A DNA stretch of 64,000 nt from Firmicutes bacterium UBA1764 (GCA_002315535.1 DCHA01000057.1:676-64675), one strand, 5' to 3'; positions 5,056 through 64,000 are shown, counted from the stretch's first letter. Translations and numbers: made by a program. The notes: a model not told the origin generated them from the sequence alone.

Positions 5056-5066
5056 GAGGTGAAAGA

Positions 5067-6086: not shown

Positions 6087-6095
6087 AGAGTAAAT

Positions 6096-6123: not shown

Positions 6124-6129
6124 GTGCAA

Positions 6130-7341
6130 TTAATTAAAAACAAATTGTTCCAATCTGTTAAAGGCTTCTATTAGCCTGCTCTTTGGCAGAGCCAGATTCA
6201 TGCGTATGCAGTTTTGCCCAAAGAAGTCTTCGCCGTTTTGCCAGTCGACTCCGGCCTCAAGGCCCTTCTTCATAAGCTCGGCATGAGTCATATTATGCTT
6301 TGCTAAATACTCGCTGCAATCAATAAAGAACATGTAGGTTCCCTGAGGCTTTGAAACGCTGACTCCGGCAAGCTTTTCATTTACAAACCTTGTTGCGTAG
6401 TTTGCATTGTCTGTCAGTACTGTTAAAAGCTCTTCAAGCCATTCTTCGCCTCCGGCATTAAAGCCCCCAATCAGGGCATATTGAGAGAGGATATTCATTG
6501 AGTTGTAGAAGCACTCGCCCTCGGTCTTTAATATTTTATCCCTAAGCTCTTTGTTATATATTATGTGATAAGATCCGATAAAGCCCGCAAGATTAAAGGT
6601 CTTTGTCGGAGCATATAAAGCAACAGTGCGCATTCTTGCGTCTTCGCTGATGCTTTGAGTCGGGATATGTTTATGGTCGCCCAAAATAATATCAGACCAA
6701 ATCTCGTCAGAGATAACTGTCATATCGTACTTTGCGAAAAGCGTCATTGCTTTTTCGATTTCCCACTTTTCCCACACACGGCCGGTTGGGTTGTGCGGAG
6801 AACAGAATATAGCGACCTTAATCTTTTCGTCCATGATGCGCTTTTCCATATCATCAAAGTCCATTCTGTAGACGCCTTCGGCATCTCTTTTCATCGGGCT
6901 GTGAACAGGCGTAAAGCCGGCATCTGCGAAAACGTGAGTAAAGCCAACATATGTCGGACTGTGAACAAGAACCTTTTCACCCTTTACAAGAAGCGTTCTC
7001 AGAACGCTTGATACGCCGCCGAGCACTCCGTTTTCATAGCCTATGTTTTCCTTTGAAAGACCCGCAACGCCGTTTCTCTTTGCCTGCCAATTGATTATGG
7101 CCTCATAGTATTCATCCTTTGGAAGATAATAGCCAAAGCAAGGATGGGCAAGTCTTTGTGCAACAGCCTCTTGAATTCCCGGGTAGGTCGCAAAGTTCAT
7201 GTCGGCAATCCACATCGGAATATGATCGGTGATTCCGTTTTTCAGTTCAATGCCTTTTCTGTACGGGCTTTCAGCCGGTGGATCTACTGCCAGAGCATCA
7301 CATCCGTGGCGGTCAATTATTGTTTCAAAATCGTATTTCAT
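6130..7341 (-). CDS. PLP-dependent class I/II aminotransferase-fold C-S lyase (PatB/MalY-like cystathionine beta-lyase)
   Basis: MKYDFETIIDRHG... N-terminus and PTKTFNLAG PLP-lysine motif. Start moved to the ATG at 7341; the ORF-track start at 7437 adds 32 non-homologous residues. Confidence 0.75.
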   Translation of the reverse strand: MKYDFETIIDRHGCDALAVDPPAESPYRKGIELKNGITDHIPMWIADMNFATYPGIQEAVAQRLAHPCFGYYLPKDEYYEAIINWQAKRNGVAGLSKENIGYENGVLGGVSSVLRTLLVKGEKVLVHSPTYVGFTHVFADAGFTPVHSPMKRDAEGVYRMDFDDMEKRIMDEKIKVAIFCSPHNPTGRVWEKWEIEKAMTLFAKYDMTVISDEIWSDIILGDHKHIPTQSISEDARMRTVALYAPTKTFNLAGFIGSYHIIYNKELRDKILKTEGECFYNSMNILSQYALIGGFNAGGEEWLEELLTVLTDNANYATRFVNEKLAGVSVSKPQGTYMFFIDCSEYLAKHNMTHAELMKKGLEAGVDWQNGEDFFGQNCIRMNLALPKSRLIEAFNRLEQFVFN

Positions 7342-7488
7342 TCTCATCCTGCCTTTCGTGCAAAGTGATCTTGAATATAGTATAGCAATTGCAGACGGAA
7401 TTGGAAGTATATGTGACGAATTGCCCGCACACTTCATCGTGATAAAGTGCTATAATTAATTATTCAAAACACTAAAAGGAGTACCCTT

Positions 7489-8619
7489 ATGACCAAAAAA
7501 ATATCTACATGGGAAGCCGCATGTATCATCACGGGATACGGAATAGGCGGCGGAGTTTTGGCAATGCCTTATCTCGCAGAAAAGAACGGAATCGTTGTTG
7601 CGATGCTGATTCTTATTGCAGCTTTTGTGCTCAGCATATTGCTGCATCTTATGATTGCGGATATTTGCCTAAAGACGGGCCCGGGCGCTCAAATCGTATC
7701 AGTCTTTTCAAAGTTCATGTTCAAGGGTAAATATAAAAAGCCTTTGACAATTCTGCTCTTTGTATTGATGGCTATTGTTTTGTTTGCAAACCTTGCCGCA
7801 TATAATGCTGCGGCATCAGAGGTTATAAACAATATAATCGGAATAGGGGATACACTCTGCGACATCATCTTTTATGTACTTGCCGCAAGTGTAGTTCTGT
7901 TTGGACTAAAGGCCGTTGCAGTCAGCGAGAAACTGATGGTTGCAATTATCTTTGCGCTTATTGCGGTTTTGGCTGTTGCATCCTTTGCGAATATCCACAA
8001 TCCGCTTCCTATCAGAGCGGGAAGTCTTCATGACGGAATCAGATATTACGGCATGGCAATGCTCGCCTTCGCGGCATTCTTCTCTGTCCCGCAGGCTGTT
8101 GAGGGCCTTGGCGGCGACGAAAAAGAAATAAAGAAAGCAGTATTCCTCGGACTCGGTAATAACTTCATTATTATCACCGTGGTAATGGTATGCGCTATTC
8201 TTGCATCCCCGGAGGTTACAGAGGTTGGCATGGTTGGCTGGTCACAGGGCATCGGCCTTTGGGCAAAGATTGTCGGCGGACTCTTTACTCTCTTTGCAAT
8301 GCTTACAACTTATTGGTCAGTAAGTCTTGCGCTCAAGGATATATTAATTGAGCAGACAAAACTCAACGGAAATATATGCTGGCTTATTTCTACATTGCCA
8401 TCACTGATTCTTGCACTTTCAAATCTCGGAAGCTTCCTCGATTTTCTCGAGCTTGCCGGAGGCGCAATTGCAATTATTATTGCGATGCTCTTCGTGCCTT
8501 GCTATAGGCTCGCTTTAAAAGAGGTCCCCGGAGCGCTTATTAATCCGCTTTCAAAGTCATGGATACACTTCCTTGTCATGGCGGCATATATTTTAATGGG
8601 AATAGGAAATTTGATTTAG
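7489..8619 (+). CDS. amino-acid permease (aromatic amino acid/Trp-Tyr permease-like, APC fold)
   Basis: 376-aa polytopic ORF; AAGGAG RBS; N-terminal TGYGIGGGVLAMPY motif typical of Mtr/TnaB/TyrP-like carriers. Confidence 0.6.
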   Translation: MTKKISTWEAACIITGYGIGGGVLAMPYLAEKNGIVVAMLILIAAFVLSILLHLMIADICLKTGPGAQIVSVFSKFMFKGKYKKPLTILLFVLMAIVLFANLAAYNAAASEVINNIIGIGDTLCDIIFYVLAASVVLFGLKAVAVSEKLMVAIIFALIAVLAVASFANIHNPLPIRAGSLHDGIRYYGMAMLAFAAFFSVPQAVEGLGGDEKEIKKAVFLGLGNNFIIITVVMVCAILASPEVTEVGMVGWSQGIGLWAKIVGGLFTLFAMLTTYWSVSLALKDILIEQTKLNGNICWLISTLPSLILALSNLGSFLDFLELAGGAIAIIIAMLFVPCYRLALKEVPGALINPLSKSWIHFLVMAAYILMGIGNLI

Positions 8620-8628
8620 GGTAGCAAA

Positions 8629-10215
8629 ATGTCCACACTTTTTTACAACGGAAAAATTCACACTATGGTATCCGAGCTTGATGAAAAAAGCTGGATGCTG
8701 GTTCGCTCCGGCAAAATCGAAAGGATGGGCACCGGAGAGCCTGATGGTGATTTAAAGTATAAAGAAAAAATTGATCTCGGAGGAAAGCATGTATATCCTT
8801 GCTTGATTGATGCTCATGTCCACATGCTGCTGACCATTGCTGTTATGGCAATGGGCTTTAGCGCGTGTGAGATTACAAGCGAGGGGGTTCGTCCGAATAC
8901 GATTAAGGGCGTCGGCGAGCGGATTCGCAGCTACGCCGAAAAGCAAAAGCCCGGAGCTGTCATTGCGCTGAATAATTATATTCTGACCGCAATTGACGAG
9001 CTGCGCATGCCGACAAAGGATGAGCTTGATGACTGGGCAGGCGGCAGAGCCATCGTAGTATACAGCATTGATGGTCACAGCACATCGCTTTCCACTAAGA
9101 TGCTTGAGCTTGTCGGGCTTGATCCGGCAAAATCTAACGGCGTTCTGCAGGGCGAGGAAAACGAGAGGATGCAGGGGCAGATTGTAAATAAGATAAGCTC
9201 GCTGATCAGCCTTCCGATGCTTGCAAAGGGAATTGCGAATTTTCATAATTATTGTGCGGACTACGGAATCAATATTGTCGGCGCGCTCGAGGGAAATGCA
9301 AATTGTGACAAGGATCCTATCACAGAGCTGGCGGTTAAGCTTGCGAGACATTTTGATGTCGGCGTCAGACTGTATCTGCAGTACACCGATATCAATAAGG
9401 TTCGCCCGTACGAAAAATACATGAAGAAAAAGCGTGTCGGCGGCTGCGGTGAATGGGAAACCGATGGTGCCAGCGGATCGCACTCTGCGGCATTTAGAGC
9501 GCCGTATAAGGACAACGGAATTATCGCAGGCACCTACTATACTCAGGATCAATTTGACGGCTTTGTAAAAAGCTACGCAGATGAAGGCTACCAGATTGCG
9601 ACACACGCAATCGGCGAGCTTGCAATAGAGCAGGTCCTGAATGCATATGATAAAAATGAAAACGGCAGATTCTTTAGAATAGAGCATTGCGAGTTCCATG
9701 ATGATGACGCATTCGAGAGGCTCGCAAAGGGACGCTATGCAGTCATGATGCAGCCCGGCTATGCATGGATAGATAAAAGATATCTTCACACATACGAACA
9801 ATTCCTAAACGAAGATATTTGCGCAAGACTTAAATTCAAAAAGCTACTTGATGCCGGAGTTTGCGTATGCGGTTCATCCGATGCTCCTGTTCAGGACATG
9901 GATCCGTATCTGCAAATGCTTGGAGAGACTCAGTTCTATAACGAGGCAGAATCAATTACCCCGTATCAGGCTCTGTGTACATATACAAAGAATGCGGCAA
10001 GGGCAATTGAGGAAGAGGACGAGTACGGAAGCCTCGAAGAGGGTAAGACCGCCGATTTCTTTACTGCGGATAAGGACTTCTTCAGTCTCAGTCCGGAGCA
10101 AATCGCTGATTTCAGACCGCTGCAAACCTACTACGGCGGTAAGCCCTGCAAGCGCTATAAAGGCACAATGCTTGAGCTTGCAAGGATGATGTTAGGCAAA
10201 GCAAAGTTAATATAA
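8629..10215 (+). CDS. metal-dependent amidohydrolase (Amidohydro_3 / YtcJ-like)
   Basis: 528 aa; DAHVHM metal-binding HxH motif near the N-terminus; C-terminal GSSDAP...; directly follows the permease. Confidence 0.7.
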   Translation: MSTLFYNGKIHTMVSELDEKSWMLVRSGKIERMGTGEPDGDLKYKEKIDLGGKHVYPCLIDAHVHMLLTIAVMAMGFSACEITSEGVRPNTIKGVGERIRSYAEKQKPGAVIALNNYILTAIDELRMPTKDELDDWAGGRAIVVYSIDGHSTSLSTKMLELVGLDPAKSNGVLQGEENERMQGQIVNKISSLISLPMLAKGIANFHNYCADYGINIVGALEGNANCDKDPITELAVKLARHFDVGVRLYLQYTDINKVRPYEKYMKKKRVGGCGEWETDGASGSHSAAFRAPYKDNGIIAGTYYTQDQFDGFVKSYADEGYQIATHAIGELAIEQVLNAYDKNENGRFFRIEHCEFHDDDAFERLAKGRYAVMMQPGYAWIDKRYLHTYEQFLNEDICARLKFKKLLDAGVCVCGSSDAPVQDMDPYLQMLGETQFYNEAESITPYQALCTYTKNAARAIEEEDEYGSLEEGKTADFFTADKDFFSLSPEQIADFRPLQTYYGGKPCKRYKGTMLELARMMLGKAKLI

Positions 10216-28530: not shown

Positions 28531-28606
28531 CGGGGTGTAGCGCAGTTGGTAGCGTGCTTGGTTCGGGACCAAGAGGCCATGGGTTCGAATCCCGTCACTC
28601 CGACCA
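28531..28606 (+). tRNA. tRNA-Pro (anticodon CGG), CCA encoded
   Basis: Cloverleaf by hand: acceptor CGGGGTG/CACTCCG (one G-U), anticodon arm CTTGG-TTCGGGA-CCAAG, T-arm GGGTTCGAATCCC, 3' ACCA. Confidence 0.9.
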
Positions 28607-52011: not shown

Positions 52012-52082
52012 ATAAAAAACGAAGCAAAGTATAATAGATATTAATTGAAATGTTATTTTTAACAAGTGGAGGAACTGCAATA

Positions 52083-53297
52083 ATGAATATTAATGAGTTG
52101 AAAAGTATTCATTCTTGGGTAAAGAGTGAACTTAATTCATGTACAAACTTTTGGCTTAAATATGGAATAGATCATGAGCACGGTGGCGTTTATACCTGTC
52201 TTGACCGTGAGGGAAAGATTTTTTCCAGAGATAAGAGCGTTTGGATGCAGGGAAGATGTGCTTGGACCTTTGCTTTCCTCTGCACAAATTACGGGAAGAA
52301 TGATGAATGGCTTAGTGCAAGCAAGTCTTGTCTTGATTTCCTTGAAAAGTATTGCAGGAACTGGGCTGCTGATGGCAGGCTGTATTTTACCGTAACAGGA
52401 GACGGCAAGCCACTTAGACAGAGACGATATTGCTTCAGTGAAGGTTTTTATGCAATGGCTAATGCAGAGTATTACGCAAACACCGGAGATAAACTTTGTC
52501 TTGAAAGAGCTCGATGGGCATACGAAATGATATATAAGCTCAACAATGGACTTATCAAGGATCCTACAGGTATGGGTCCGAAAACTATCCCCGAGACAAG
52601 ATCGGGCAGAGCCTTTGCTGATGCAATGATTTATCTTAATATTACCAATGTTCTACGCAGATGTGATCCGGATATGACAGAATTATATGATGCCAGAGCT
52701 AAAGAATGCGTTGATAATATATTTAAATATCATTTCAAGCCTGAACTTAAGTGTACGCTGGAAGTTGTTGGGCCAAAGGGCGAACTTCAGACGGATACTG
52801 TTGCGGGCAGAGTTGTAAATCCGGGGCATGACATTGAAGGAAGCTGGTTCGTTCAGCAGGAAGCTCTTTATGAAAAGGATGAAGAAATGAGTAAGCAGGC
52901 GCAGGCAATGTTCAGATGTGCGCTTGAGGCCGGATGGGATAAGCAGTACGGCGGACTTTTATACTTTATCGATGCTCTGGGGATGCCGCCTGAAGCATAT
53001 GAACACGATATGAAGCTCTGGTGGACACACAATGAACTTCTCATTGCATCGGCAATGTATTACAGAGATACAAAGGACGAATACTATTGGGATTGGTTCG
53101 TTAAGACAGCGCAGTATTGTAAGGACCATTTTGCAGATCCTCAGTATGGAGAATGGTTTGGATATCTGAGACGTGACGGAAATCCTACAGAGCCGCCTTG
53201 CAAGGGTAGCACCTTTAAGGGCCCATTCCATGTTCAGCGCAGTCTTATTTATGTTGATAAAATACTCGATGATATTGAGGCCGAAATAAATGCTTAA
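52083..53297 (+). CDS. N-acylglucosamine 2-epimerase (AGE/RENBP family)
   Basis: FWLKYGIDHEHGGVYTCLDREGK..., GHDIEGSWF, WWTHNE motifs; GGAGGA RBS before the ATG at 52083. Confidence 0.8.
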   Translation: MNINELKSIHSWVKSELNSCTNFWLKYGIDHEHGGVYTCLDREGKIFSRDKSVWMQGRCAWTFAFLCTNYGKNDEWLSASKSCLDFLEKYCRNWAADGRLYFTVTGDGKPLRQRRYCFSEGFYAMANAEYYANTGDKLCLERARWAYEMIYKLNNGLIKDPTGMGPKTIPETRSGRAFADAMIYLNITNVLRRCDPDMTELYDARAKECVDNIFKYHFKPELKCTLEVVGPKGELQTDTVAGRVVNPGHDIEGSWFVQQEALYEKDEEMSKQAQAMFRCALEAGWDKQYGGLLYFIDALGMPPEAYEHDMKLWWTHNELLIASAMYYRDTKDEYYWDWFVKTAQYCKDHFADPQYGEWFGYLRRDGNPTEPPCKGSTFKGPFHVQRSLIYVDKILDDIEAEINA

Positions 53298-53991
53298 TCA
53301 GGTTTTTGACCCGGAAAATTTATTTTGGCGAATAGTATCAAGACTTGTTGACTTTGTCGGATTGAGTATATTTTGCGCAATACTTTGCATCCCGGTTGTT
53401 ACCGCGGTGCCGGCACTGTGCGCTTTGTATTATACGGTCGTAAAAGTCTTTTTGTACAAGCAAACTAGGACCTTCAGGATTTTCTTCCAGACTTTTGCGA
53501 GGGATTTCCTGAAAAATGTTGTAGTGGGATTGATATGTATCCCCATTATTGCCCTATGTGTGTTTGGATACTTGGTAATGTTCGCAAACAGTGGAACGAA
53601 TTTAGGGGCAATAGCCTTTGTAATCTATTACATATGCTTGATTGTTCCGGTTGGAACGGTTCTGTATGTAATATTTATTAATGCAAGATTCAGTTTGGGA
53701 AAGCTTGAGCTTTTCAAGCAGGCTCTATCCATGACCTTTGCGCATTTGCCGAGCACCCTGGTTTTGGTTCTGCTCAGCCTTGAGCTTTGTCTGTGGTCTG
53801 TGAATAATTGGACTCCCGCGTTGATTACCCCTTGCCTTTGGGCTCTTGTTTCGTCATTCTTTGTTGAGCGAAATTTCGAAAAGCATCTTTCTGATGAAGA
53901 AAAAGCTGCTTTCAGAGGCGTATCCCTCGAGGATTTTTACGAACAAGAAGCAAACAGGAAAAAAGCAAGGGCTACACTATTTCGGAAATAA
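53290..53991 (+). CDS. YesL/DUF624-family membrane protein
   Basis: 233 aa, 5-6 TMs; family commonly embedded in CUT1 sugar loci; overlaps the AGE stop. Confidence 0.6.
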   Translation: MLNQVFDPENLFWRIVSRLVDFVGLSIFCAILCIPVVTAVPALCALYYTVVKVFLYKQTRTFRIFFQTFARDFLKNVVVGLICIPIIALCVFGYLVMFANSGTNLGAIAFVIYYICLIVPVGTVLYVIFINARFSLGKLELFKQALSMTFAHLPSTLVLVLLSLELCLWSVNNWTPALITPCLWALVSSFFVERNFEKHLSDEEKAAFRGVSLEDFYEQEANRKKARATLFRK

Positions 53992-54610
53992 TTGGGACAA
54001 GTAGCTTTGCAAGCTGACTGTGCCCTTTTCTGGATAGATGCATAAAGTCAATTTTGTTAAATTCACAGCCCTCAGCATCAACGAAATAGCATCCATTGCG
54101 AAGAGCTACATCCTTTAAATAGGGTGCAAGCTGTCGGCTTTTTTCAATGCAGCCTTCTCCCATTACTGGATCGTTAAAGCCTTCCTTGATTTGGGGAGGG
54201 CAAACAATTAGAATGTTTTTCTTTTCAGTTTGCCAGCAATCTACGCTCTTTGCTTTATTTATCAGTCTTTCCATTCCTACTGCTATTGCTGCGGCATTGG
54301 CATTAAATCTTTCTTTTGTATCATTTGTACCAAGCATAATTACCAGCAGATCAATGAATTCGTGACTTTTCAAAAGAGGATAGGCAACGGACAGGGCATC
54401 CATGCTTTCATGAAGGGGGTCTTGAAATACTGTGGTACGTCCTGATAGTCCCTCTTCAGTTACAAGATAATTGCTTCCGAGTTTCTTTTGGAGAAGGCAT
54501 GTCCAACGCTCGTTTTCATTGAATCTTATTCCACCGTCTGCGCAGTCGCTTGGGTCCGCACAGTATCCGTGAGTGTTTGAATCTCCCAGACATAATATAT
54601 GTTTTCTCAT
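53972..54610 (-). CDS. SGNH/GDSL hydrolase (candidate sialate O-acetylesterase), cytoplasmic
   Basis: ILCLGDSNTHGY, GLSGRTT, MLGTND blocks. ATG at 54610 with GGAGGT RBS. Paralog of 38582-39214. Confidence 0.75.
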   Translation of the reverse strand: MRKHILCLGDSNTHGYCADPSDCADGGIRFNENERWTCLLQKKLGSNYLVTEEGLSGRTTVFQDPLHESMDALSVAYPLLKSHEFIDLLVIMLGTNDTKERFNANAAAIAVGMERLINKAKSVDCWQTEKKNILIVCPPQIKEGFNDPVMGEGCIEKSRQLAPYLKDVALRNGCYFVDAEGCEFNKIDFMHLSRKGHSQLAKLLVPIISEIV

Positions 54611-54819
54611 TGTTAACCTCCTGAATTGTATACAATTTATTATTATAGCATCGAATGAATTCGTTTTGTCAGGATTTAACACAAATAATAATTAATAATA
54701 ATTAAGAAAATAAATATTTGAGCTAAAGCTTGTTTTGTCTAACAAAAATTGTATACTTTAAGTGAGTAAGTTAGATAGGGATTTCTATCTGTTTAAGTTA
54801 CTATATTAGGAGGAAAACA

Positions 54820-56121
54820 ATGAAGAAATTATTAGCAGTACTTCTTGCACTGGCTATGGTACTTTCTCTCGCAGCATGCGGAACTAAGAAAGAAGAACCT
54901 GCACCAGTAGCAGAACCAACAAGCATCACACTCTGGACATACCCAATCGGTAACTGGGGCGATGAAGCTTCTGTAAAGGCATTAACAGATGCTTTCACAG
55001 CAGAAACAGGAGTTGTAGTAAATGTTGAATACCTTTCATACACAGATGGTGATGATAAGGTTAACACAGCTCTTACAGCAAACCAGGCTCCAGACCTCAT
55101 CATGGAAGGACCTGAAAGACTCGTTGCTAACTGGGGCGCAGCAGGCTACATGGTAGACCTCTCTGACCTTGTTGATGCTGAAGACAGAGCACAGCTCAAC
55201 CCGGCAGCATTCGCAGCATGTGAAACAGCTGATGGAAAAGTTTACGAATACCCACTCGTAATGACAGCTCACTGCATGGGAATCAACTATGATGCATTTG
55301 TTGAAGCAGGTGCTGATCAGTATGTTGATATTGAAAATCACACATGGACAACAGAAGGCTTCTTCAAGGCTGTTGAAGCTCTTAACGCTAAGTTTGGTGA
55401 CAACGTAGCAGCAGTATACTGCGGTGGCCAGGGCGGCGACCAGGGAACAAGAGCTATCGTAAATAACCTCTATGGCGGAACATTTACAAGCGCAGATCAC
55501 ACAAGCTATACATGGGATTCTGCTGAAAACGTAAAGGCTATTTCAGAACTTTATAACACAAAGGGAATCACATTTGATCCTGCTATTGTTGGCGGAGATG
55601 AAATCAACCTCTTCCGTCAGGGCGTTCTTAAGATGGCATTCTGCTGGAATATTGCTCAGCAGCTCAATACAGATAATAATGATGCAGGCTTAACAAACGA
55701 TGGACAGAGAATCGAATTTATGTCATTCCCATCAGAGACAGGCGCAAGCCAGCTTTGCGGTGGTATCTGGGGCTTCGGTATCTTCAACAATGGAGATGAG
55801 GCTAAGATCGCAGCAGCTAAGCAGTTCATTACTTATATGTGCGACAGTGCTCATACAGCAGAAGCTGTAAAGACAGCTAACTATTTCGCAGTTCGCAGCA
55901 CAGCAGGCGGCACAGATATCAGCAATGTTTGGGCAGACAATGAAATCATGAATGAATATAACGTACTTATGCAGTACCTCGGAGATTACTATCAGGTAAC
56001 AAAGGGTTGGGCAGCAGCACGTACAGCATGGTGGAATATGCTTCAGGCAGTTGGCGCTGGCACAGATGTACAGACAGCTGTATCTCAGTTCGCAGCAGAA
56101 GCTAACGCAGCTGCAAAATAA
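54820..56121 (+). CDS. carbohydrate ABC substrate-binding lipoprotein (CUT1; candidate sialic-acid SBP)
   Basis: MKKLLAVLLALAMVLSLAAC-GTKK lipobox; AGGAGG RBS; nan-cluster context. Confidence 0.8.
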   Translation: MKKLLAVLLALAMVLSLAACGTKKEEPAPVAEPTSITLWTYPIGNWGDEASVKALTDAFTAETGVVVNVEYLSYTDGDDKVNTALTANQAPDLIMEGPERLVANWGAAGYMVDLSDLVDAEDRAQLNPAAFAACETADGKVYEYPLVMTAHCMGINYDAFVEAGADQYVDIENHTWTTEGFFKAVEALNAKFGDNVAAVYCGGQGGDQGTRAIVNNLYGGTFTSADHTSYTWDSAENVKAISELYNTKGITFDPAIVGGDEINLFRQGVLKMAFCWNIAQQLNTDNNDAGLTNDGQRIEFMSFPSETGASQLCGGIWGFGIFNNGDEAKIAAAKQFITYMCDSAHTAEAVKTANYFAVRSTAGGTDISNVWADNEIMNEYNVLMQYLGDYYQVTKGWAAARTAWWNMLQAVGAGTDVQTAVSQFAAEANAAAK

Positions 56122-56166
56122 GGTAATACAGACTATTAAGTTTAGAACCTAAAAAAAGCATTACCG

Positions 56167-56208
56167 CGTCCTATCACCGAGTATTCGCGGTGGTAGGACG
56201 TTTTCTTT
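56167..56208 (+). terminator. attenuator/partial terminator after the SBP gene
   Basis: CGTCCTATCACCG-8 nt-CGGTGGTAGGACG followed by TTTTCTTT. Confidence 0.55.
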
Positions 56209-56226
56209 ATAAGGAAAGGTGCGTTT

Positions 56227-57135
56227 ATGAAACAGACAAATAAACCATCAATGAGCCGTGTGCTCAGACGAAGAGAGACTTTTTCAGCCTATCTCTTCCT
56301 TCTTCCGAGTCTGATCTTTTTTATAGGCTTTGTAATCATTCCAATGGTTCTTTGCCTTTATACAAGTTTCTTTGATTCAAAACTAAATGCAAATACCCCG
56401 GATGTTTTCGTGGGCTTTGCAAATTATGTAGAACTTTGGAGAGATCCGGTATTCAAGAAAGCATTAGTTAACACTTTAGTAATTGTTGTAGTAAGTGTTC
56501 CTACAGTAGCGGCATTTTCGCTTTGGGTTGCTTCGGCAATTTACAAGATGAAGGACTGGATGCTGAGTGCTTTCAGATGTATTTTTTATCTTCCTGTAGT
56601 AACAGGTTCCGTAGCTGTTACCGTAGTATGGAAGTGGATGTACAACAACTATTACGGAATTTTTAATTATGTATTAAAAGGCGTTGGTGCAATTGATAAC
56701 AACATAAACTGGCTTGGCAATCCAAGTACGGCGTTATGGTGTATCATCATCATTTTGTTTACCACATCTGTCGGCCAGCCAATTGTTTTATATGTTTCTG
56801 CTCTCGGAAACGTAGATGCAAGCTTGGTTGAGGCCGCAAATGTAGACGGCGCAAACAATCTTCAGTCATTCTGGAAGGTTAAGTGGCCATCAATTATGCC
56901 AACAACTCTTTATATTATCGTTATTACAACAATCAACAGCTTCCAGTGCTTCGCTCTGATCCAGCTGCTCACTTCAGGTGGCCCGAATAATGCAACACAA
57001 ACAGTAATGTATTACATTTACTACACTGCATTTAAGCTTTACCGTTTCGGATACGGAAATGCTATGGGTATTATTCTCGCTATCTTTATTGCAGTCCTCA
57101 GCGCATTCCAGTTCTGGCTTGCCAAGGAAAAGTAG
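56227..57135 (+). CDS. carbohydrate ABC transporter permease (MalF-like)
   Basis: EAA loop VEAANVDGANNLQSFWKVKWPSIMP. Confidence 0.85.
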   Translation: MKQTNKPSMSRVLRRRETFSAYLFLLPSLIFFIGFVIIPMVLCLYTSFFDSKLNANTPDVFVGFANYVELWRDPVFKKALVNTLVIVVVSVPTVAAFSLWVASAIYKMKDWMLSAFRCIFYLPVVTGSVAVTVVWKWMYNNYYGIFNYVLKGVGAIDNNINWLGNPSTALWCIIIILFTTSVGQPIVLYVSALGNVDASLVEAANVDGANNLQSFWKVKWPSIMPTTLYIIVITTINSFQCFALIQLLTSGGPNNATQTVMYYIYYTAFKLYRFGYGNAMGIILAIFIAVLSAFQFWLAKEK

Positions 57136-57150
57136 AAAGGAGAAATACAA

Positions 57151-58032
57151 ATGCGTACTAGGAAAAACAAAGGTGCATATTATGTAGTATCTCTGATTAT
57201 ACTGATAATACTTGCATTGCTGTTCTTGTTCCCTCTGTATTGGATTGTTACCGGGGCATTTAAAACCGGAGCAGAAATTAATTCTGTAACACCTGTTTGG
57301 TGGCCAACAGAGTGGGTTACAAATAATTTTGAAAAGCTCTTCTCTAAGAGATCAGCTCCGCTGTTTGAAATCGGATCACTGACAGGACCTGTCGTGCCCG
57401 GAGCAATCAGATGGCTGGTAAACACTGTGTTTATGGCTGTCGTTGCAATGGTACTTACTTGTATCACAGCTTCTATGGCAGGCTATGCTCTGGCAAAGAA
57501 GCGCTTCACAGGTCGCCATATACTGTTTACCTTGATAGTATGTGCTATGGCACTTCCGAAACAGGTAATACTGATTCCGCTTATCAGAGAAATGAGTACC
57601 CTGGGCTTGTACGATAAGATTTGGGCTGTAATATTCCCAACCGTCGGCTGGCCATTTGGAGTATTCCTTATGAAACAGTTCTCTGAGGGCGTGCCGGGAG
57701 AAATACTCGAAGCCGCAAGAATTGATGGCGCAAGTGAAGCCAGAACATTCAGCAGCATTGTAGTTCCGATTATTAAACCGGGAATTGGTGCTTTGGCTAT
57801 ATTCACATTTATTAATAGCTGGAACGATTACTTTATGCAGTTGATTATGTTGTCAAGCTCCAGCAAGTTGACGATATCTCTTGGTATTGCAACTATGCAG
57901 GCTGAAAACAGCACAGATTTTGGAATCATCATGGCAGGGGCTGCCCTTGCTGCACTTCCAATTATTATCGTATTCCTAATATTCCAGAAATACTTCACTC
58001 AGGGAATTACCATGGGTGCAGTTAAGGGTTAA
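57151..58032 (+). CDS. carbohydrate ABC transporter permease (MalG-like)
   Basis: EAA loop LEAARIDGASEARTFSSIVVPIIKPG. Confidence 0.85.
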   Translation: MRTRKNKGAYYVVSLIILIILALLFLFPLYWIVTGAFKTGAEINSVTPVWWPTEWVTNNFEKLFSKRSAPLFEIGSLTGPVVPGAIRWLVNTVFMAVVAMVLTCITASMAGYALAKKRFTGRHILFTLIVCAMALPKQVILIPLIREMSTLGLYDKIWAVIFPTVGWPFGVFLMKQFSEGVPGEILEAARIDGASEARTFSSIVVPIIKPGIGALAIFTFINSWNDYFMQLIMLSSSSKLTISLGIATMQAENSTDFGIIMAGAALAALPIIIVFLIFQKYFTQGITMGAVKG

Positions 58033-58047
58033 AATCGGAGGTCGGAA

Positions 58048-59160
58048 ATGGCAACATTACAATTAAAAAACATAAAGAAAATTTATGAAGGTGGAGTAGA
58101 AGCTGTTCATTCTTTCAACCTTGATATTGCTGATAAGGAATTTATAGTACTTGTTGGGCCTTCCGGTTGCGGAAAGTCCACAACTCTTAGAATGATTGCA
58201 GGTCTTGAAGAAATCAGCGAAGGCGAACTTTATATCGGGGATAAGCTTGTAAATGAAGTTGAGCCAAAGGACAGGGATATCGCAATGGTATTCCAGTCAT
58301 ATGCTCTTTACCCGTACATGACAGTTTACGAAAATATGTCGTTTGCTCTCAAGCTTCGTCATCTCCCCAAAGATGAAATTGATCAGAGAGTCAGATGGGC
58401 TGCAGAGGTTCTTGATATTACAAAGTATTTGGACAGAAAGCCAAAGGCTTTGTCAGGCGGTCAGCGCCAGCGTGTAGCAATTGGTCGAGCAATCGTAAGA
58501 GAGCCAAAAGTCTTCCTTATGGACGAGCCTTTGTCAAACCTGGACGCTAAGCTCAGAAACCAGATGAGAGCTGAAATCATTAAGCTCCGCAAGAAAGTAA
58601 ATACTACATTCATTTATGTAACTCATGACCAGACTGAGGCTATGACTTTGGGAGATCGTATAGTTATTATGAAGGATGGTTGGATTATGCAGATTGGTAC
58701 CCCTCAAGAGGTATTTGATCACCCTGCAAATATTTTTGTGGCAGGATTCATTGGAATGCCACAGATGAATTTCTTTGATGGAGAGCTTGCTAAAAACGGA
58801 GAAAAGTATCAGCTGACAGTAAACGGATGCCCGGTTGAAATTGGCGAAAGTTTACAGCAGGCTTTAAAGGAAAAGGATGTTCCTTCAAAGAAGGTAATCG
58901 TAGGATGCAGACCGGAGCATATCGAGCTTTCATCAGCTGATAATGCACTTAAGGCGACAGTAGATGTATCTGAAATGATGGGAAGCGAAATCCATCTTCA
59001 TCTTAATTGTGAAGGAAAGGATATCGTAATTCGTGTTCCAAGCACAAAGCTAAGTGCAGAACATCGCGGCGGATTTGAATTTGGAACAGATCTTAAATTT
59101 GCATTCCCGGCAGATCTTATTCATCTCTTTGATCCTGAAACGGAGAATAATCTTATATGA
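58048..59160 (+). CDS. carbohydrate ABC transporter ATP-binding protein (MsmX/MalK/UgpC-like)
   Basis: Walker [29 protein letters not shown]. Long runs identical to the 37363-38568 product. Confidence 0.9.
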   Translation: MATLQLKNIKKIYEGGVEAVHSFNLDIADKEFIVLVGPSGCGKSTTLRMIAGLEEISEGELYIGDKLVNEVEPKDRDIAMVFQSYALYPYMTVYENMSFALKLRHLPKDEIDQRVRWAAEVLDITKYLDRKPKALSGGQRQRVAIGRAIVREPKVFLMDEPLSNLDAKLRNQMRAEIIKLRKKVNTTFIYVTHDQTEAMTLGDRIVIMKDGWIMQIGTPQEVFDHPANIFVAGFIGMPQMNFFDGELAKNGEKYQLTVNGCPVEIGESLQQALKEKDVPSKKVIVGCRPEHIELSSADNALKATVDVSEMMGSEIHLHLNCEGKDIVIRVPSTKLSAEHRGGFEFGTDLKFAFPADLIHLFDPETENNLI

Positions 59161-59603
59161 TTCTGGCAAAAATAAAGGATGCCGCACAATATCGTGGCAT
59201 CTGTGTGTATTTAGATCGCGCATTGGAGCGTTTTGAGTCTGATTTGCCTGGACTTACTCCAGGGCATGTAGAAATTGACGGAAATAATCTGTATCTGAAT
59301 TGCTTTGACTATGAAAGTCTGCCGGAGTCAGAAACCATGTATGAGGCCCATGATCATATGGGGGATATCCATATTTGTTTAAAGGGTGAAGAAAAGGTTT
59401 ACATTGCGGAAACAACTCGATTGAGGGAAGTAAGCAGAAACAGAGAAGGCGATGTCTTTATGCTTGAGGGCGATGCAGATCAGGTTGTTATACTTAGGGA
59501 AGGGGACTTTCTTGTAGTATTTCCCGGAGACGCCCATAGAATAAAAATGCAAGTAAACGGACCTTGCGCCGTTCGCAAGGCGGTATATAAATTTAAATTA
59601 TAA
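59157..59603 (+). CDS. YhcH/YjgK/YiaL (DUF386) family protein (NanQ-like)
   Basis: 148 aa; ATGA overlap with the ATPase stop; H-x-...-D/H cupin-like motifs (EAHDHMGDIHI, FPGDAHR); nan-cluster context. Confidence 0.65.
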   Translation: MILAKIKDAAQYRGICVYLDRALERFESDLPGLTPGHVEIDGNNLYLNCFDYESLPESETMYEAHDHMGDIHICLKGEEKVYIAETTRLREVSRNREGDVFMLEGDADQVVILREGDFLVVFPGDAHRIKMQVNGPCAVRKAVYKFKL

Positions 59604-59618
59604 TCACAGAAAAGAAGG

Positions 59619-60554
59619 TTGATTTCATTGAAAGATATTACTAAATATCAAGGCATTTTTCCGGCTTTTTATGCATGTTATGACAAGGACGGCAATATTT
59701 CCTTGGAAGGTGTAAAAAAGCTGACAGAGTATTTTATTAAGGTTGGAGTAAAGGGAGTATATGTTGGCGGAAGCTCCGGCGAATGCATCTACCAGGACAA
59801 GGAAGAAAGAAAGCAGCTTCTGGAAACGGTTGTTAAGACTGCTGCTGGCAGACTTACAATTATTGCGCACGTTGCTTGTAATAACACAAGGGACTCCGAA
59901 GAGCTTGCAAGACATGCAGAGTCTTTGGGCGTAGACGCAATCGCATCTATACCTCCGATTTATTTCAAGCTTCCTGATTATGCGATTGCAGAGTATTGGA
60001 ACGATATGTCTAAGGCTGCACCGAATACGGACTTTATCATTTACAATATTCCTCAGCTTGCAGGTGTATCTCTCGGTATTCCCCTTCTTAAGGAAATGCT
60101 CAAGAACCCAATGGTTGTTGGCGTAAAGAATTCATCCATGCCTGTTCAGGATATCCAGATGTTCAAGGATGAGGGTACAATGGGCGGTCGTCCTTTCGTT
60201 GTATTTAACGGACCTGACGAACAGCTTTGTTCCGGATTGGCAATGGGTGCCGACGGTGGAATAGGCGGAACCTACGCCGTAATGCCGGAGCTTTACCTGA
60301 AGATATATGATTGCATTCAGAAGGGCGATATTAAGACTGCAAGAGAAGTACAGAATGATGCAGACAGAATTATATATGCACTTTGTGCCTGCAAATGTAA
60401 TTTGTACGCTTCAATGAAGGAGATAATGAAGAGAAGAGTCGGAATTGATCTTGGCGGAGTGCGTAAACCTCTTTATAATATTACTGATGCAGATACAGAT
60501 CAGCTCAACGTATGTGAAAAAATGATTAACGAAGCAGTAAGCAAGTGGTCATAA
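59619..60554 (+). CDS. nanA: N-acetylneuraminate lyase (DHDPS/NanA family)
   Basis: GIFPAFYACYDKDG..., GVYVGGSSGE, VGVKNSS Schiff-base Lys region. TTG start; the in-frame TTG at 59628 fits the GAAGG RBS slightly better. Confidence 0.8.
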   Translation: MISLKDITKYQGIFPAFYACYDKDGNISLEGVKKLTEYFIKVGVKGVYVGGSSGECIYQDKEERKQLLETVVKTAAGRLTIIAHVACNNTRDSEELARHAESLGVDAIASIPPIYFKLPDYAIAEYWNDMSKAAPNTDFIIYNIPQLAGVSLGIPLLKEMLKNPMVVGVKNSSMPVQDIQMFKDEGTMGGRPFVVFNGPDEQLCSGLAMGADGGIGGTYAVMPELYLKIYDCIQKGDIKTAREVQNDADRIIYALCACKCNLYASMKEIMKRRVGIDLGGVRKPLYNITDADTDQLNVCEKMINEAVSKWS

Positions 60555-60565
60555 AAAAGCTCTTT

Positions 60566-60599
60566 AACGGGATCGACTATGTCGGTCCCGATTTTTTTC
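60566..60599 (+). terminator. rho-independent terminator ending the nan operon
   Basis: CGGGATCGAC-TAT-GTCGGTCCCG followed by ATTTTTTT. Confidence 0.85.
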
Positions 60600-60702
60600 G
60601 ATAGTTTCATATTCCAAAAGGGATTAAGAGACGAACAAGTATAAAAAATAACACAGGTACTCTGATGATATAATATAATCGCTATATTAAGGAGTGAAGA
60701 CT

Positions 60703-62634
60703 ATGGAAAGCAAATATTCAGGCTACATGGGACGTGTCGTAATGTACGACCTCAGCACCCAAACACTCACGGATTATCCGTGGTCTGACAGAGAGCGCGA
60801 GCTTTTCATTGGCGGTAAAACAATGGCATCAAAGATCATGCTGGACAATTTTACCGGACAGGAAAAACCGTTCTCCGAAGAAAACTTAATCGTTATCACG
60901 ACAGGTCCGCTCACAGGAACAGGGGCCCCAAGTTCCAGTCGTTTTAACATCTCAACATTATCTCCACAGACTCTTATTACAACATCATCAAACTGCGGTG
61001 GCCGCTTCGGATGGTATCTGAAGAAGGCCGGTTTTGATGCGCTTATTCTCAAGGGTAAGTGCCCGGAGCATTCATGGCTTGAAATCAACAATGACAAGTT
61101 CGTAATGCACAACGCTGATGATTTATGGGGTCTTAAGACCGGAGAAACGCAGGAAGCACTGCAGGAAAAGCACAAGATGCCTAACGGTAAGCTTATGAAG
61201 TACGGACAGCTTGCAATAGGACCTGCCGGAGAAAACCAGGTTCTCTATGCATCGGTAATAAGCGATGAAAGAGCATCCGGAAGAGGCGGCGTTGGTGCTG
61301 TATTCGGATGGAAGAACCTCAAGGCTATTACGGTTCGCGGTAACAAGACAGTCCCTGTTAAGGATCCTGAAAAGACAAAGCAGTGGATCATCAAGTGGGA
61401 TAAGTACATCAAGTCTCATCCGCTTACAGGAAACCAGCTGCCGAGACTCGGAACAGCAGGCCTTGTATCATCAATGCAGATGCGCGGAATGCTTTCATCA
61501 AAGAACTATAACTACGGTAAGTATGAACACTTCGACAAGGTAAACGGCGAAACTCTGGCAGAGGATTTCAATATCGTGAACAAGGGCTGCCTCACTTGCC
61601 CGATGAAGTGCGCAAGAACAGTAGAGGTTAACGGCAAGCCTGTTAAGGGTCCGGAGCTTGAAACTCTGGGACTTTTGGGCGGCGGAATCCTAAATCCTAA
61701 CCTTGCCGATATTCTAAAATGGAATTACGAGATAGATGAGCTGGGTATGGATACAATCTCTGCATCATCAACTCTGGCATACGCTATGGAGGCAAATGAA
61801 AAGGGCCTCTGGAAAAACGGACTCGAGTTCGGTAAGACCGATAACATCTCTCAGATTTGGGATGATGTTGCTCACAGAAGAGGAATCGGCGCAGAGCTCG
61901 CAGACGGATCCAAGAGACTTTCCGAAAAGTACGGCGGAAAGGAATTTGCAATCCATTCCAAGGGTATGGAGCTTGCGGCATATGAACCAAGACGTGCGGT
62001 TGGTCAGGGCCTCGGATATGCAGTATCCAACAGAGGAGGCTGCCACTTAAACGGCGGCTACCTGGTAATTGTTGAGGGCCTCGGTCTTTATACAAATCCG
62101 CTTACCCACCACGCAAAGGCAGACTTCACAATGCTATTCCAGAATCTCATGGAAACAATTTCAGCATCAGGACAGTGTCTCTTCACATCCTATGCGTTTT
62201 TCCCGGGATTCCTTATCACAAGACCTAATGGTGTAATTACAACAATTGCAAATAAAGCAATTCCGTTCATCGGAGGCGTGCTGAGACTTATCAACAGAGT
62301 ATCTCCGGCCTTGGCTTTGCATTTGCCTGTATTCCACCACACAAAGATCTTCAGCTATGCTTTGGGCATGCCAATGACCTTTGGTAAGTACATAAGAACA
62401 GGTGAAAGATCCTACAACGTTGAAAGGCTGGTAAACAGCAAATTCGGTGTAAATGCTTCTTGGGATACACTTCCTAAGAGACTTACTGATACTCCGCAGG
62501 ATCCAAACAATCCAAAGACTAAGGTACCTCTTGAAACGCTCAAGAAGACCTATTATAAAGCCCGTGGATGGGATCAGAACGGACTTCCGACCAAGCATAC
62601 CTTAAGAAAGCTTGGCCTTGGCGAATATTGTTAG
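60703..62634 (+). CDS. aldehyde:ferredoxin oxidoreductase (tungstopterin AOR family)
   Basis: GYMGRVVMYDLSTQ...FIGGKTMASKIM N-terminal AOR domain; CLTCPMKC [4Fe-4S] motif. ATG at 60703 with AAGGAG RBS; the GTG at 60694 overlaps the RBS. Confidence 0.85.
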   Translation: MESKYSGYMGRVVMYDLSTQTLTDYPWSDRERELFIGGKTMASKIMLDNFTGQEKPFSEENLIVITTGPLTGTGAPSSSRFNISTLSPQTLITTSSNCGGRFGWYLKKAGFDALILKGKCPEHSWLEINNDKFVMHNADDLWGLKTGETQEALQEKHKMPNGKLMKYGQLAIGPAGENQVLYASVISDERASGRGGVGAVFGWKNLKAITVRGNKTVPVKDPEKTKQWIIKWDKYIKSHPLTGNQLPRLGTAGLVSSMQMRGMLSSKNYNYGKYEHFDKVNGETLAEDFNIVNKGCLTCPMKCARTVEVNGKPVKGPELETLGLLGGGILNPNLADILKWNYEIDELGMDTISASSTLAYAMEANEKGLWKNGLEFGKTDNISQIWDDVAHRRGIGAELADGSKRLSEKYGGKEFAIHSKGMELAAYEPRRAVGQGLGYAVSNRGGCHLNGGYLVIVEGLGLYTNPLTHHAKADFTMLFQNLMETISASGQCLFTSYAFFPGFLITRPNGVITTIANKAIPFIGGVLRLINRVSPALALHLPVFHHTKIFSYALGMPMTFGKYIRTGERSYNVERLVNSKFGVNASWDTLPKRLTDTPQDPNNPKTKVPLETLKKTYYKARGWDQNGLPTKHTLRKLGLGEYC

Positions 62635-62645
62635 GAGGTCTAAAG

Positions 62646-62915
62646 ATGATAAACGTTGAATTATTTGGTCTCTTCAGACTCGATACAAAGATAAAGGGCT
62701 TTGAGCTTGACCCTTCTGCAGAAGGCGTTAGCACAGTCAAAGACATTTATCCGATACTTCTAAAGAAGGCAAAGGAAGTTAATCCTGCAACCAAAATATG
62801 TGCAAAGGACATAGATGGTTGTATAATAATAATTAACGGAGTCCAGTCAAAAAAGAGTGCTCATGTAAATGATGGTGATAAGATCCAGCTCATGAGTCCT
62901 GTATGCGGAGGTTAA
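62646..62915 (+). CDS. MoaD/ThiS-family ubiquitin-like protein (C-terminal Gly-Gly)
   Basis: 89 aa ending ...SPVCGG-stop; GGAGG RBS before the ATG at 62646. The track ORF start at 62568 overlaps the AOR gene. Confidence 0.7.
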   Translation: MINVELFGLFRLDTKIKGFELDPSAEGVSTVKDIYPILLKKAKEVNPATKICAKDIDGCIIIINGVQSKKSAHVNDGDKIQLMSPVCGG

Positions 62916-62919
62916 TGAT

Positions 62920-64000
62920 ATGAGTGAAGAAGTAAAAAAAGATCAAGAGCCTCAGACTGAAGCTCCAAAGAAGAAGGTTGCTGCAAAGAAAGAGGAGGCT
63001 CCGGCAGAAAAGCCTGCTGCAAAGCCCGCGGCACCTAAGAAACCAAAAGACAAGCCTTATATTGATATGCCGACATGTGTAGGCTGCAGTGTCTGCATAG
63101 AAGCTTGCCCTATGGATTGCATCCAGCTTAGTGAGCCGAAGTTCCACGGCGACATTCGTACATATGCTTACCTTTCAGATGAAAAGAAATGTATCGGATG
63201 CGGAATGTGCGAAAAGGCTTGCCCGATTGATGTAATCACAATGTGCCAGCCGGGAGAAATTCCAGACAAATATACGAAGGGAGAAACTAGTATGTGTCAA
63301 GATTTATTTAAGGTTTACTGCAGAGTATTCCAGGCCGTTATGAAGGTGGGTAACTACTTCATGGGCTACAGAATGCCGGACTACATTCAGGGAGCAGGTT
63401 GCATCAAGCAGCTTCCGGGAATCATCAAGAGCAAGGGACTTACAAAGGTACTTGTAGTAACTGATGGAGGACTCCTCAAGCTGGGCGTTCCTGATGGACT
63501 TTTCGAAGCAATGAAGGAAGTTGGACTTGAATATGAAGTATTCAGCAACATTATTCATAACCCAACATCAGATAACGTAGAAGAGGGCTACAAGCTCTTC
63601 AGAGAAACAGGATGCCAGGGACTTATCGCATTCGGTGGCGGCGCTCCAATGGACTGTGCAAAGGCTATCGCTGCAAAGAACGCACATCCAAATAAGACTG
63701 TTGCACAGATGCAGGGACTCCTCAAGGTTCACAAGAAGATTTGTCCGTTCTGGGCAGTACCAACAACATCAGGTACAGGCTCCGAAACAACAGTAGCTGC
63801 TGTAATCACAGATTCCGCTACTCACCACAAGGCATCTATCAACGACCCATCAATTCTTCCAAAGTATGCGGTTCTCGATCCGGAGCTTACAATTGGTCTC
63901 CCACCATATGTAACAGCTCAGACAGGTATGGATGCTCTCTGCCACGCAGTAGAAAGCTACACCAACTGGACATATTGCACAGCACTTGAAAAGGATCTTT
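62920..64000 (+). CDS. fusion protein: Lys/Ala/Pro-rich tail + 2x[4Fe-4S] ferredoxin domain + iron-containing alcohol dehydrogenase (3' end beyond window)
   Basis: Hand translation from the ATG at 62920 is stop-free to 64000. It shows CVGCSVCIEACP and CIGCGMCEKACP, then Fe-ADH motifs GGGAPMDCAK, PTTSGTGSE, DALCHAVE. Not in the ORF track because no stop lies inside the window. Confidence 0.8.
   Translation, partial: MSEEVKKDQEPQTEAPKKKVAAKKEEAPAEKPAAKPAAPKKPKDKPYIDMPTCVGCSVCIEACPMDCIQLSEPKFHGDIRTYAYLSDEKKCIGCGMCEKACPIDVITMCQPGEIPDKYTKGETSMCQDLFKVYCRVFQAVMKVGNYFMGYRMPDYIQGAGCIKQLPGIIKSKGLTKVLVVTDGGLLKLGVPDGLFEAMKEVGLEYEVFSNIIHNPTSDNVEEGYKLFRETGCQGLIAFGGGAPMDCAKAIAAKNAHPNKTVAQMQGLLKVHKKICPFWAVPTTSGTGSETTVAAVITDSATHHKASINDPSILPKYAVLDPELTIGLPPYVTAQTGMDALCHAVESYTNWTYCTALEKDL

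Follow-up and report, generated by a model that had tools for sequence, protein, structure and literature searches.

What task could be shared by a tungsten-type aldehyde:ferredoxin oxidoreductase (AOR), a small ThiS/MoaD-like protein and an iron-dependent alcohol dehydrogenase (Fe-ADH) that carries a ferredoxin domain at its N-terminus, when their genes follow one another within a few nucleotides? The question is raised by positions 60703-64000 of a stretch of DNA of 64,000 nucleotides from Firmicutes bacterium UBA1764 (GCA_002315535.1 DCHA01000057.1:676-64675; the window, hereafter), where an initial annotation had seen a compact module that reduces acids to alcohols. The answer that we consider rather probable, judging from sequence comparison, is that this operon, worL-worX-(fd::adh), would encode a coupled two-step system interconverting a carboxylic acid and the corresponding aldehyde and alcohol.

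The three genes are all on the + strand, at 60703-62634, 62646-62915 and from 62920 onwards, separated by 11 nt (between AOR and the ThiS-like gene) and 4 nt (between this and the fusion), with a ribosome-binding site of the GGAGG type in each case; they are thus as tightly spaced and co-directional as was first noted, and lie after the terminator of a nan operon whose stem is at 60568-60590. The stop codon of the fusion gene is predicted about 506 nt past the end of the window. In a longer public contig (L001) the gene continues to give a protein of 528 aa (P0001), and it is directly followed by a convergent NTPase gene, for which reason the operon consists of exactly three genes and no fourth member was found when the sequence was extended beyond position 64000, as the initial annotation had suggested.

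The fusion, first of all, is a single open frame running from the ATG at 62920 to the window end, containing both domains with no interruption, as had been described. It begins with a tail rich in K, A, P and E (residues 1-45; 62920..63054, + strand), whose predicted local distance difference test (pLDDT) values are 26-42, and which, according to the alignment, takes the position of the first 2x[4Fe-4S] domain of longer relatives; a similar tail is found in the protein P0012 of locus L004. This is followed by the 2x[4Fe-4S] ferredoxin domain (residues ~46-110; 63055..63249, + strand), recognized by Fer4, Fer4_7 and Fer4_9, with two CxxCxxCxxxCP motifs (C53/56/59/63 and C91/94/97/101) whose eight cysteines are invariant in 14 relatives. 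The best matches of the Fe-S module in the PDB are the poly-ferredoxins FwdF and MvhB and ferredoxin domains of the clostridial type. A linker helix comes next (residues ~125-150; 63292..63369, + strand), predicted at 125-149 with low-to-moderate confidence; the YCRVFQAVMKVGNYF motif that it bears is also N-terminal in unfused members, the helix being typical of this ADH subfamily.

The rest of the protein is a domain of the Fe-dependent (group III) alcohol dehydrogenases (63370..64000, + strand, cut by the window end), for which the part within the window gives 167 bits with Pfam Fe-ADH, ADH_Fe_C also having been matched for the ADH family. Its metal ligands D338/H342/H408/H422 are invariant and align with D194/H198/H263/H277 of the ADH2 of Z. 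mobilis (ZmADH2), and a GGG occupies positions 239-241. The conserved D182 aligns with Asp39 of the NAD-dependent ZmADH2 and FucO; by this alignment, the domain carries the Asp typical of NAD, not NADP, enzymes. The AlphaFold model of the fusion has a mean pLDDT of 75.6, with residues 1-39 disordered, the Fe-S domain moderate, the linker helix weak and the ADH confident, and is usable only for domain boundaries. In the fold search the ADH part finds methanol dehydrogenase, FucO, ADH2 and DhaT, with target-normalised template modeling scores of ~0.9; this search of the fusion model returned ordinary Fe-ADHs only, and says nothing on the Fe-S domain.

The AOR (worL, or aor; 643 aa; 60703..62634, + strand) is a pyranopterin enzyme with the AFOR_N and AFOR_C domain pair of the family of tungsten oxidoreductases (WORs) and AORs, at 216 and 361 bits, far over the Pfam cut-offs. 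Its closest solved structures are the large subunit of WOR1 from A. mobile (388 bits) and the AOR of P. furiosus (PfAOR; 385 bits), while the scores against other types are lower: 245 bits for FOR, 195 for benzoyl-CoA reductase and 135 for WOR5, together with 19 for the NCBIfam GAPOR model. By these scores the enzyme would be of the AOR type and not of the FOR or GAPOR type, membership of which, with its unrelated role, had been named at the outset as the outcome that would speak against the proposal. The AOR sensu stricto is said to be clade 87 of Schut et al. The cluster cysteines C296/C299/C303/C492 align with C288/291/295/494 of PfAOR, and T251/E320/Y427/H448 with its aldehyde-oxidising residues T243/E313/Y427/H448, all of them being invariant across 12 relatives.

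Directly after the fourth [4Fe-4S] cysteine there is an insertion of ~45-50 aa (residues ~497-556; 62191..62370, + strand) that is not in PfAOR or the AmWOR1 large subunit and that, at the sequence level, sets this clade apart from the solved AORs. The stretch has 60-61 residues in all of the 127 clade members collected, whatever their operon type, and is missing from two of three outgroup AORs; it holds conserved motifs, and occurs too in an ADH-AOR fusion (P0247) described below. Neither this insertion nor the ~45-aa tail of the fusion figured in the initial annotation.

The 89-aa product of the second gene (worX; 62646..62915, + strand) is a ThiS/MoaD-like beta-grasp protein, with 27.5 bits for Pfam ThiS against a cut-off of 22.5, a score for the TIGR01687 MoaD model under its cut-off, and a C-terminus (...SPVCGG) that has the Gly-Gly ending first reported for it. 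It begins 11 nt after the AOR stop, and a ThiS-like gene is directly behind the AOR in nearly all related loci. Small genes of this class with a Gly-Gly end strictly adjoin AOR genes, often with MoeB/ThiF, MoeA and MoaA nearby (Iyer, Burroughs and Aravind, 2006, PMC1779556; PMC13328260), and this AOR-linked MoaD, now called WorX, is a cofactor-maturation factor (PMC1779556, PMC13328260). The 89-aa protein would thus be WorX, presumed to be a sulfur carrier for the pterin cofactor and neither a subunit nor an enzyme of the pathway, so that its inclusion as a part of the reduction module does not hold. In this respect the linkage shows no notable difference from what was already known.

The association between the AOR and the ferredoxin-ADH (Fd-ADH) is not peculiar to one genome. 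A protein search with the window fragment found at least 120 distinct clusters at 90% identity that combine Fer4 and Fe-ADH, in two length classes, of ~485-500 aa and ~550-580 aa, the longer of which has, according to the alignment, an extra N-terminal 2x[4Fe-4S] domain and four clusters in total. Two surveys of loci were then available, almost all the relatives in them being metagenome-assembled. In the first, led by the ADH, one genome per species was scanned and each locus typed at the level of open reading frames (ORFs): (i) the two-cluster fusion was found at 12 loci, including the window; (ii) the four-cluster fusion at 17; (iii) a poly-ferredoxin encoded on its own, after the ThiS-like gene and before the ADH, at 11; and (iv) the AOR followed by the ADH, with no ferredoxin and no space for one, at 12, of which 10 had a detectable ThiS-like gene. 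In other genomes, every one of the 28 fused Fd-ADH genes with upstream DNA is immediately preceded by an AOR of this clade (54-85% identity), with a ThiS-like gene detected between them in 26.

The second survey, led by the AOR, covered metagenome contigs with AORs of 64-75% identity and gave 64 loci with enough downstream DNA to be typed, 27 with a fused Fd-ADH, eight with separate Fd and ADH genes, four with an ADH and no Fd, 20 with AOR, ThiS-like gene and poly-ferredoxin without ADH, and five with AOR and ThiS-like gene only. Taking both surveys, the fusion is behind an AOR in 56 independent loci. The co-occurrence of Fer4-Fe-ADH with AOR that the initial annotation had proposed to look for is thus abundant, and the coupling, as seen in these sequences, recurs across gut and rumen Clostridia and is widespread, not unique to this genome. 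Separate Fd and ADH genes with no functional linkage had been put forward as evidence that would undo the proposal; the separate genes do exist (11 genome loci, and 12 more without Fd), which in part goes against it, but the linkage to the AOR operon is kept in all of them.

These same data practically dispose of the idea that the fused ORF is an artefact of assembly or gene calling, or that it is adjacent to the AOR by chance. The origin of most relatives in metagenome assemblies lends it something, as do two loci that look frameshifted, L017 (~8019-9469) and L073 (~3782-5206), in which the frame of the ferredoxin stretch is not that of the ADH and which were left out of the counts, being probably frameshift errors in otherwise fused genes. 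However, the frame in the window is unbroken from the ATG at 62920, an identical fusion protein is recorded in three sources, and the architecture is repeated in the clusters and loci enumerated above, by which the idea is effectively refuted.

The loci without an ADH are those that speak most directly of what the Fe-S domain is for. Three of them were confirmed by direct reading, and in one a stretch of 136 aa of the free poly-ferredoxin matches, at 65% identity, the module found at the N-terminus of a fused protein, while the second half of this poly-ferredoxin has 61% identity over 61 aa to the Fe-S domain of the window. Because the same module exists as a free gene behind AORs lacking an ADH, it belongs with the AOR, the ADH being what has been added. 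By sequence, then, the Fe-S domain is the electron-transfer partner proper to this AOR clade, shortened to two clusters in the window, which agrees with the electron-carrier role first suggested for it.

It could be argued that the Fe-S domain serves the ADH instead, as a redox sensor or switch, or that the protein is a regulatory "ADH" similar to ErcA and not a catalyst, since Fe-ADHs, as is well established, work by hydride chemistry, for which one-electron clusters are not obviously required, and the ErcA family is among the sub-threshold NCBIfam matches (259 bits against a cut-off of 550). We consider this very improbable, given that the module is found behind AORs without any ADH in almost a third of the AOR-led loci (20 of 64), that the ADH shows no variation in its metal ligands or its NAD-binding motif, and that lactaldehyde reductase, methanol dehydrogenase, ADH2 and DhaT outscore ErcA for the window protein.

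The fusion of the window is not the only form in which these proteins have been joined. An exhaustive search of 50%-identity representatives for other fused forms of the ADH subfamily brought to light the reverse order, an Fe-ADH with a C-terminal four-cluster ferredoxin module (P0249, 543 aa), as well as an Fe-ADH joined directly to a complete AOR, with AFOR_N and AFOR_C (P0246 and P0247, ~1,026 aa). These single-chain ADH-AOR proteins form ~69 distinct 90% clusters of ~1,000-1,050 aa, the contigs that carry them reaching 868 kb. Over 635 residues, the AOR part of P0247 is 48% identical to the AOR of the window, and in the locus L162 the ADH-AOR gene (6001-9081) is followed by a ThiS-like gene (9086-9340) for 84 aa that end in GGG. 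The databases name such chains only "aldehyde:ferredoxin oxidoreductase" or "iron-containing alcohol dehydrogenase". The same ADH subfamily has also been joined to other partners, namely a YhhN membrane domain (P0263, P0276), a PfkB-like domain resembling sugar kinases (P0244) and, in a BdhE-like order, an aldehyde dehydrogenase (ALDH; P0259). In a neighbour-joining tree of the AORs, which is descriptive only, the types of arrangement cluster, but the two- and four-cluster fusions each appear in more than one place, which suggests repeated fusion or fission. Read in this way, the sequences indicate that the AOR system has acquired an ADH more than once.

Three fusion topologies together with an invariant operon linkage imply that the proteins act together and probably touch; the functional link between the AOR and the Fd-ADH claimed at the beginning is thereby upheld, and physical contact between the two is probable on sequence grounds. 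One could suppose, on the contrary, that the genes are simply co-expressed for one pathway, with no stable assembly of AOR and Fd-ADH and no channelling, the Fe-S domain being a private ferredoxin that was fused for stoichiometry or stability. In favor of this are the existence of unfused and Fd-less cassettes, presumably functional, the low-confidence linker helix and tail, which as modelled would fit a flexible tether, and, among the top 60 PDB matches, the absence of any sequence similarity to the WorS subunits of fixed complexes. Nevertheless, repeated fusion in three topologies (Fd-ADH, ADH-Fd and ADH-AOR) is a pattern typical of physical interactors, and in the ~69 ADH-AOR clusters both active sites are placed in one particle anyway, on account of which we regard simple co-expression as rather unlikely.

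Returning to the coupled system, its operation could be envisaged as follows. The AOR, a tungstopterin [4Fe-4S] enzyme, would interconvert acid and aldehyde with low-potential electrons, and the Fe-ADH domain would interconvert aldehyde and alcohol with NAD(H). The Fe-S domain would dock near the AOR cluster and relay electrons between the AOR and the cellular ferredoxin pool, and this docking would keep the ADH beside the AOR, so that the aldehyde, toxic and thermodynamically unfavourable, would be used where it is made; WorX would take part only in the maturation of the pterin cofactor. The gene content, the intact catalytic, cluster and NAD motifs, the conserved synteny and the free, fused and AOR-fused variants are seen in the sequences; the stable complex, the channelling, the identity of the metals, the substrate and the direction of the flux are inferred.

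Several observations weigh against this scheme. Cassettes without Fd, or with unfused Fd and ADH, exist in some lineages, and hence tethering is not essential, although the linkage to the AOR operon is retained in them; and in the ADH-led survey 17 loci with at least 4 kb upstream carry the same ADH subfamily (53-72% identity) and no AOR. Among its top 60 PDB matches the Fe-S module has none of the WorS or AorA type. The AOR insertion, which had been considered as an element for docking the ADH or Fd, was rejected in this role, being present in all clade members, including loci with AOR and WorX only. The single-chain structure model of the AOR, from a shallow alignment of 12 sequences, is poor (mean pLDDT 58.6), and the insertion appears in it as helices at pLDDT 40-62, too weak to be placed with respect to the cluster or the substrate tunnel. 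None of the NCBIfam equivalogs for Fe-ADHs (lactaldehyde reductase, EutG, DhaT-like, ErcA and others) reaches its cut-off with the ADH, the best being lactaldehyde reductase at 297 bits against 523, and consequently the substrate cannot be named. Finally, genes for tungsten uptake or for the cofactor, and a Moco/Tuco riboswitch, were looked for in the 64 kb of the window and none was found.

In the relatives, many cassettes are flanked by MoeA, ThiF/MoeB, MoaA, MoaB and MoaC genes and by those of an ABC transporter that in NCBIfam comes closest to TupA and TupB, both under the cut-off. Moco/Tuco riboswitches (RF01055) occur beside related cassettes in L002 (14793-14917, - strand), L003 (9509-9622, + strand) and L009 (10774-10894, + strand); these copies precede a TupA-like gene (L002) or a second AOR (L003), not the cassette. 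This second AOR, a distant one with 26-28% identity, is found near the ADH or the cassette in L003 (9664-11496), L051 (10837-12777) and L059 (10854-12794), and in the last two it has its own ferredoxin gene after it.

The other question is that of direction. The chemistry of the system is reversible, and the oxidation of an alcohol by NAD+ is uphill. Since, in addition, the acid/aldehyde couple is at the very low potential of ~-520 to -560 mV (PMC10816221), keeping the level of aldehyde low would help either direction and limit toxicity, a reasoning already accepted for AdhE and BdhE (PMC12454647). We lean slightly, and hardly more than that, towards a net reduction of acids in vivo, with reduced ferredoxin and NADH drained into an electron sink and alcohols made from short-chain acids in an ATP-sparing manner. 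The route conserves the ATP of acid formation (PMC10816221), and this is one of the two reasons for leaning in that direction; the other is the richness in acids of the habitats. Short-chain acids in the gut and rumen are far above alcohols, and mass action favors reduction.

The same coupled architecture could also run in the oxidative direction, which we consider a serious contender, if somewhat short of an even chance. Alcohols, or aldehydes derived from the diet or from fermentation, would then be converted to acids, the ADH yielding NADH and the fused Fe-S domain passing on reduced ferredoxin for hydrogen or biosynthesis, as a detoxification or utilisation module. Weighing against our lean, the tungsten oxidoreductases of the gut are favored as oxidative aldehyde detoxifiers, and those characterised there and elsewhere have been assigned to aldehyde oxidation or detoxification (PMC13328260, PMC11725836); in Solidesulfovibrio, ethanol is oxidised via an unlinked Fe-ADH and an AOR (PMC10084766). 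The ADH of the window, moreover, has the NAD-type Asp, and the endergonic oxidation of alcohol by NAD+ would profit from an adjacent sink for the aldehyde. Against an oxidative flux, no feature of the sequence sets the direction, and AOR and ADH together are documented for acid reduction too (PMC10816221). Of the "acid-to-alcohol" label first given to the module, therefore, the two-step chemistry of AOR and ADH stands, but not the direction, as unlinked pairs have been reported working both ways (PMC10084766, PMC10816221).

How much of all this was already known? The reduction of acids by AOR and ADH has been described in Moorella, engineered Pyrococcus furiosus, Thermoanaerobacter sp. X514 and gas-fermenting acetogens (PMC10816221), with a tungsten AOR and reduced ferredoxin taking the acid to aldehyde and an NAD(P)H-dependent ADH the aldehyde to alcohol, as would occur here. 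However, as far as that paper shows, the proteins there are separate and the ferredoxin is free, with no operon, cluster or fusion mentioned, whereas here the ADH is encoded within the AOR operon and has the Fe-S module attached to it, and in relatives it is fused to the AOR itself. Likewise, the Fe-ADH and AOR of Solidesulfovibrio and Desulfovibrio work together, both the formation and the oxidation of ethanol having been reported, but their loci are distant, with no fusion and a free ferredoxin (PMC10084766).

Among the WORs, those of Class II consist of a WorL and a four-cluster WorS, as in the WOR2 of E. limosum, PfASOR and CbGOR (PMC13328260, PMC11725836). What they have in common with our operon is that the large pterin subunit comes with a WorX gene and with a poly-[4Fe-4S] partner of its own, encoded in the same place; in gene content, the ADH-less relatives of the window AOR, which have a separate four-cluster small subunit, match them exactly. 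They differ in gene order, which is S-L-X there and L-X-S here; in the Fe-S module, which here combines the clostridial-Fd and PsaC/FwdF types and shows no similarity to solved WorS among the top 60 PDB matches; and in that the module of the window has two clusters and not four, covalently joined to an Fe-ADH, which leaves it outside the class. In the "nanowire" WORs of Class III/IV, AorABC of Aromatoleum aromaticum and the bifurcating WOR1 (PMC10413684, PMC12318220), electrons likewise leave an AOR-type large subunit via an attached Fe-S subunit towards a nicotinamide-linked module. Theirs, however, are FAD subunits that reduce NAD+ with the electrons of the aldehyde, while here there is no flavoprotein and the NAD(H) enzyme would work on the carbon intermediate, not on the electrons. 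An ADH partner is found in none of the published WOR classes.

For the joining itself there is a parallel in AdhE and BdhE, ALDH-ADH and ADH-ALDH fusions that arose several times in evolution and are believed to curb the escape of aldehyde (PMC12454647). In them too, the Fe-ADH is tied physically to the producer or consumer of its aldehyde, and the fusions recur; but that enzyme is an ALDH, CoA-acylating and NAD-dependent, which takes acyl-CoA, where here it would be a tungstopterin AOR that depends on ferredoxin, needs no CoA and takes the free acid. Pfam finds no Aldedh domain in the window protein, which places it outside the AdhE/BdhE group, though it may function in a similar way.

Thus, the AOR-ADH pathway with separate enzymes, the AOR-MoaD linkage, the AOR with a poly-ferredoxin subunit and the aldehyde-channelling ALDH-ADH fusions are already known. 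In the literature searched we found no description of an Fe-ADH in an AOR operon, of an Fe-ADH bearing the Fe-S module of an AOR, or of a single-chain ADH-AOR, in keeping with the initial remark that no such architecture was known. A classification of June 2026, with more than 4,000 WORs in five subunit classes, makes no mention of alcohol dehydrogenase in its main text, and the part covered of its supplementary neighbourhood table has no ADH entry beside an AOR, an absence that is not proof.

A further step, which we put forward tentatively and regard as possible and short of probable, would be that the AOR and the Fd-ADH form a defined particle, represented in relatives by the single-chain ADH-AOR, in which ferredoxin is connected to the tungsten site through the Fe-S module, and a common tunnel carries the aldehyde between the tungsten and iron sites. 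Such a particle would be a natural enzyme for reducing carboxylates to alcohols, or for the reverse, independently of CoA and ATP, and the WORs would gain with it a sixth subunit class. Of the 92 clades into which tungsten oxidoreductases fall, a physiological role has been defined for only five, and these enzymes are abundant in gut microbes (PMC13328260); if the particle exists, it would give a physiological role to a large, uncharacterised clade of the gut and rumen. In any case, that a clade should be repeatedly wired or fused to an ADH offers it a concrete and testable job, the interconversion of short-chain acids, aldehydes and alcohols. Were the flux reductive, Clostridia could turn free acids into alcohols and still retain the ATP gained when acetate or butyrate is formed, with a bearing on the redox balance of the gut and rumen and on endogenous alcohol formation; were it oxidative, this would be a route for the detoxification of aldehydes and alcohols that gives reduced ferredoxin. 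From the evolutionary point of view, it would constitute a CoA-independent parallel to the aldehyde channelling of the AdhE type, and the natural Fd-ADH and ADH-AOR fusions could serve as ready-made designs for the AOR-ADH route that is now engineered from separate parts.

As regards the signals around the operon, its 5′ boundary is an intrinsic terminator (60568..60590, + strand), with a 10-bp stem of seven GC pairs and the T-run ATTTTTTT after it, which ends the upstream nan operon just 3′ of the stop of a DHDPS/NanA-like gene (59619-60554). In the spacer that follows, said from the start to contain a TATAAT, the motif is indeed present: a candidate extended -10 promoter element, TGATATAAT, was read by eye at 60666..60674 (+ strand), and a second TATAAT is at 60674-60679. 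Nevertheless, the consensus two-hexamer promoter scan did not report TGATATAAT, which is accordingly a candidate only. An AGGAG at 60689-60693 lies 9 nt 5′ of the AOR ATG at 60703. Rfam, searched over 58000-64000 even at E<=1, gave no match before the operon or elsewhere in the region, that is, no riboswitch in the leader. Horizontal transfer was considered from base composition, where the GC is only mildly up (0.43-0.48 versus ~0.42), which is not diagnostic.

The nan cluster itself, kept apart from the AOR operon by the terminator, occupies ~52050-60554 of the window and comprises genes for a GlcNAc 2-epimerase-like protein, a DUF624 protein, a GDSL esterase, an ABC sugar transporter (binding protein, two permeases and a MalK-like ATPase), a DUF386/YhcH protein and the DHDPS/NanA-like lyase. 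Further upstream, a tRNA-Pro (CGG) at 28531-28606 is the sole Rfam or ARAGORN match across the 64-kb window.

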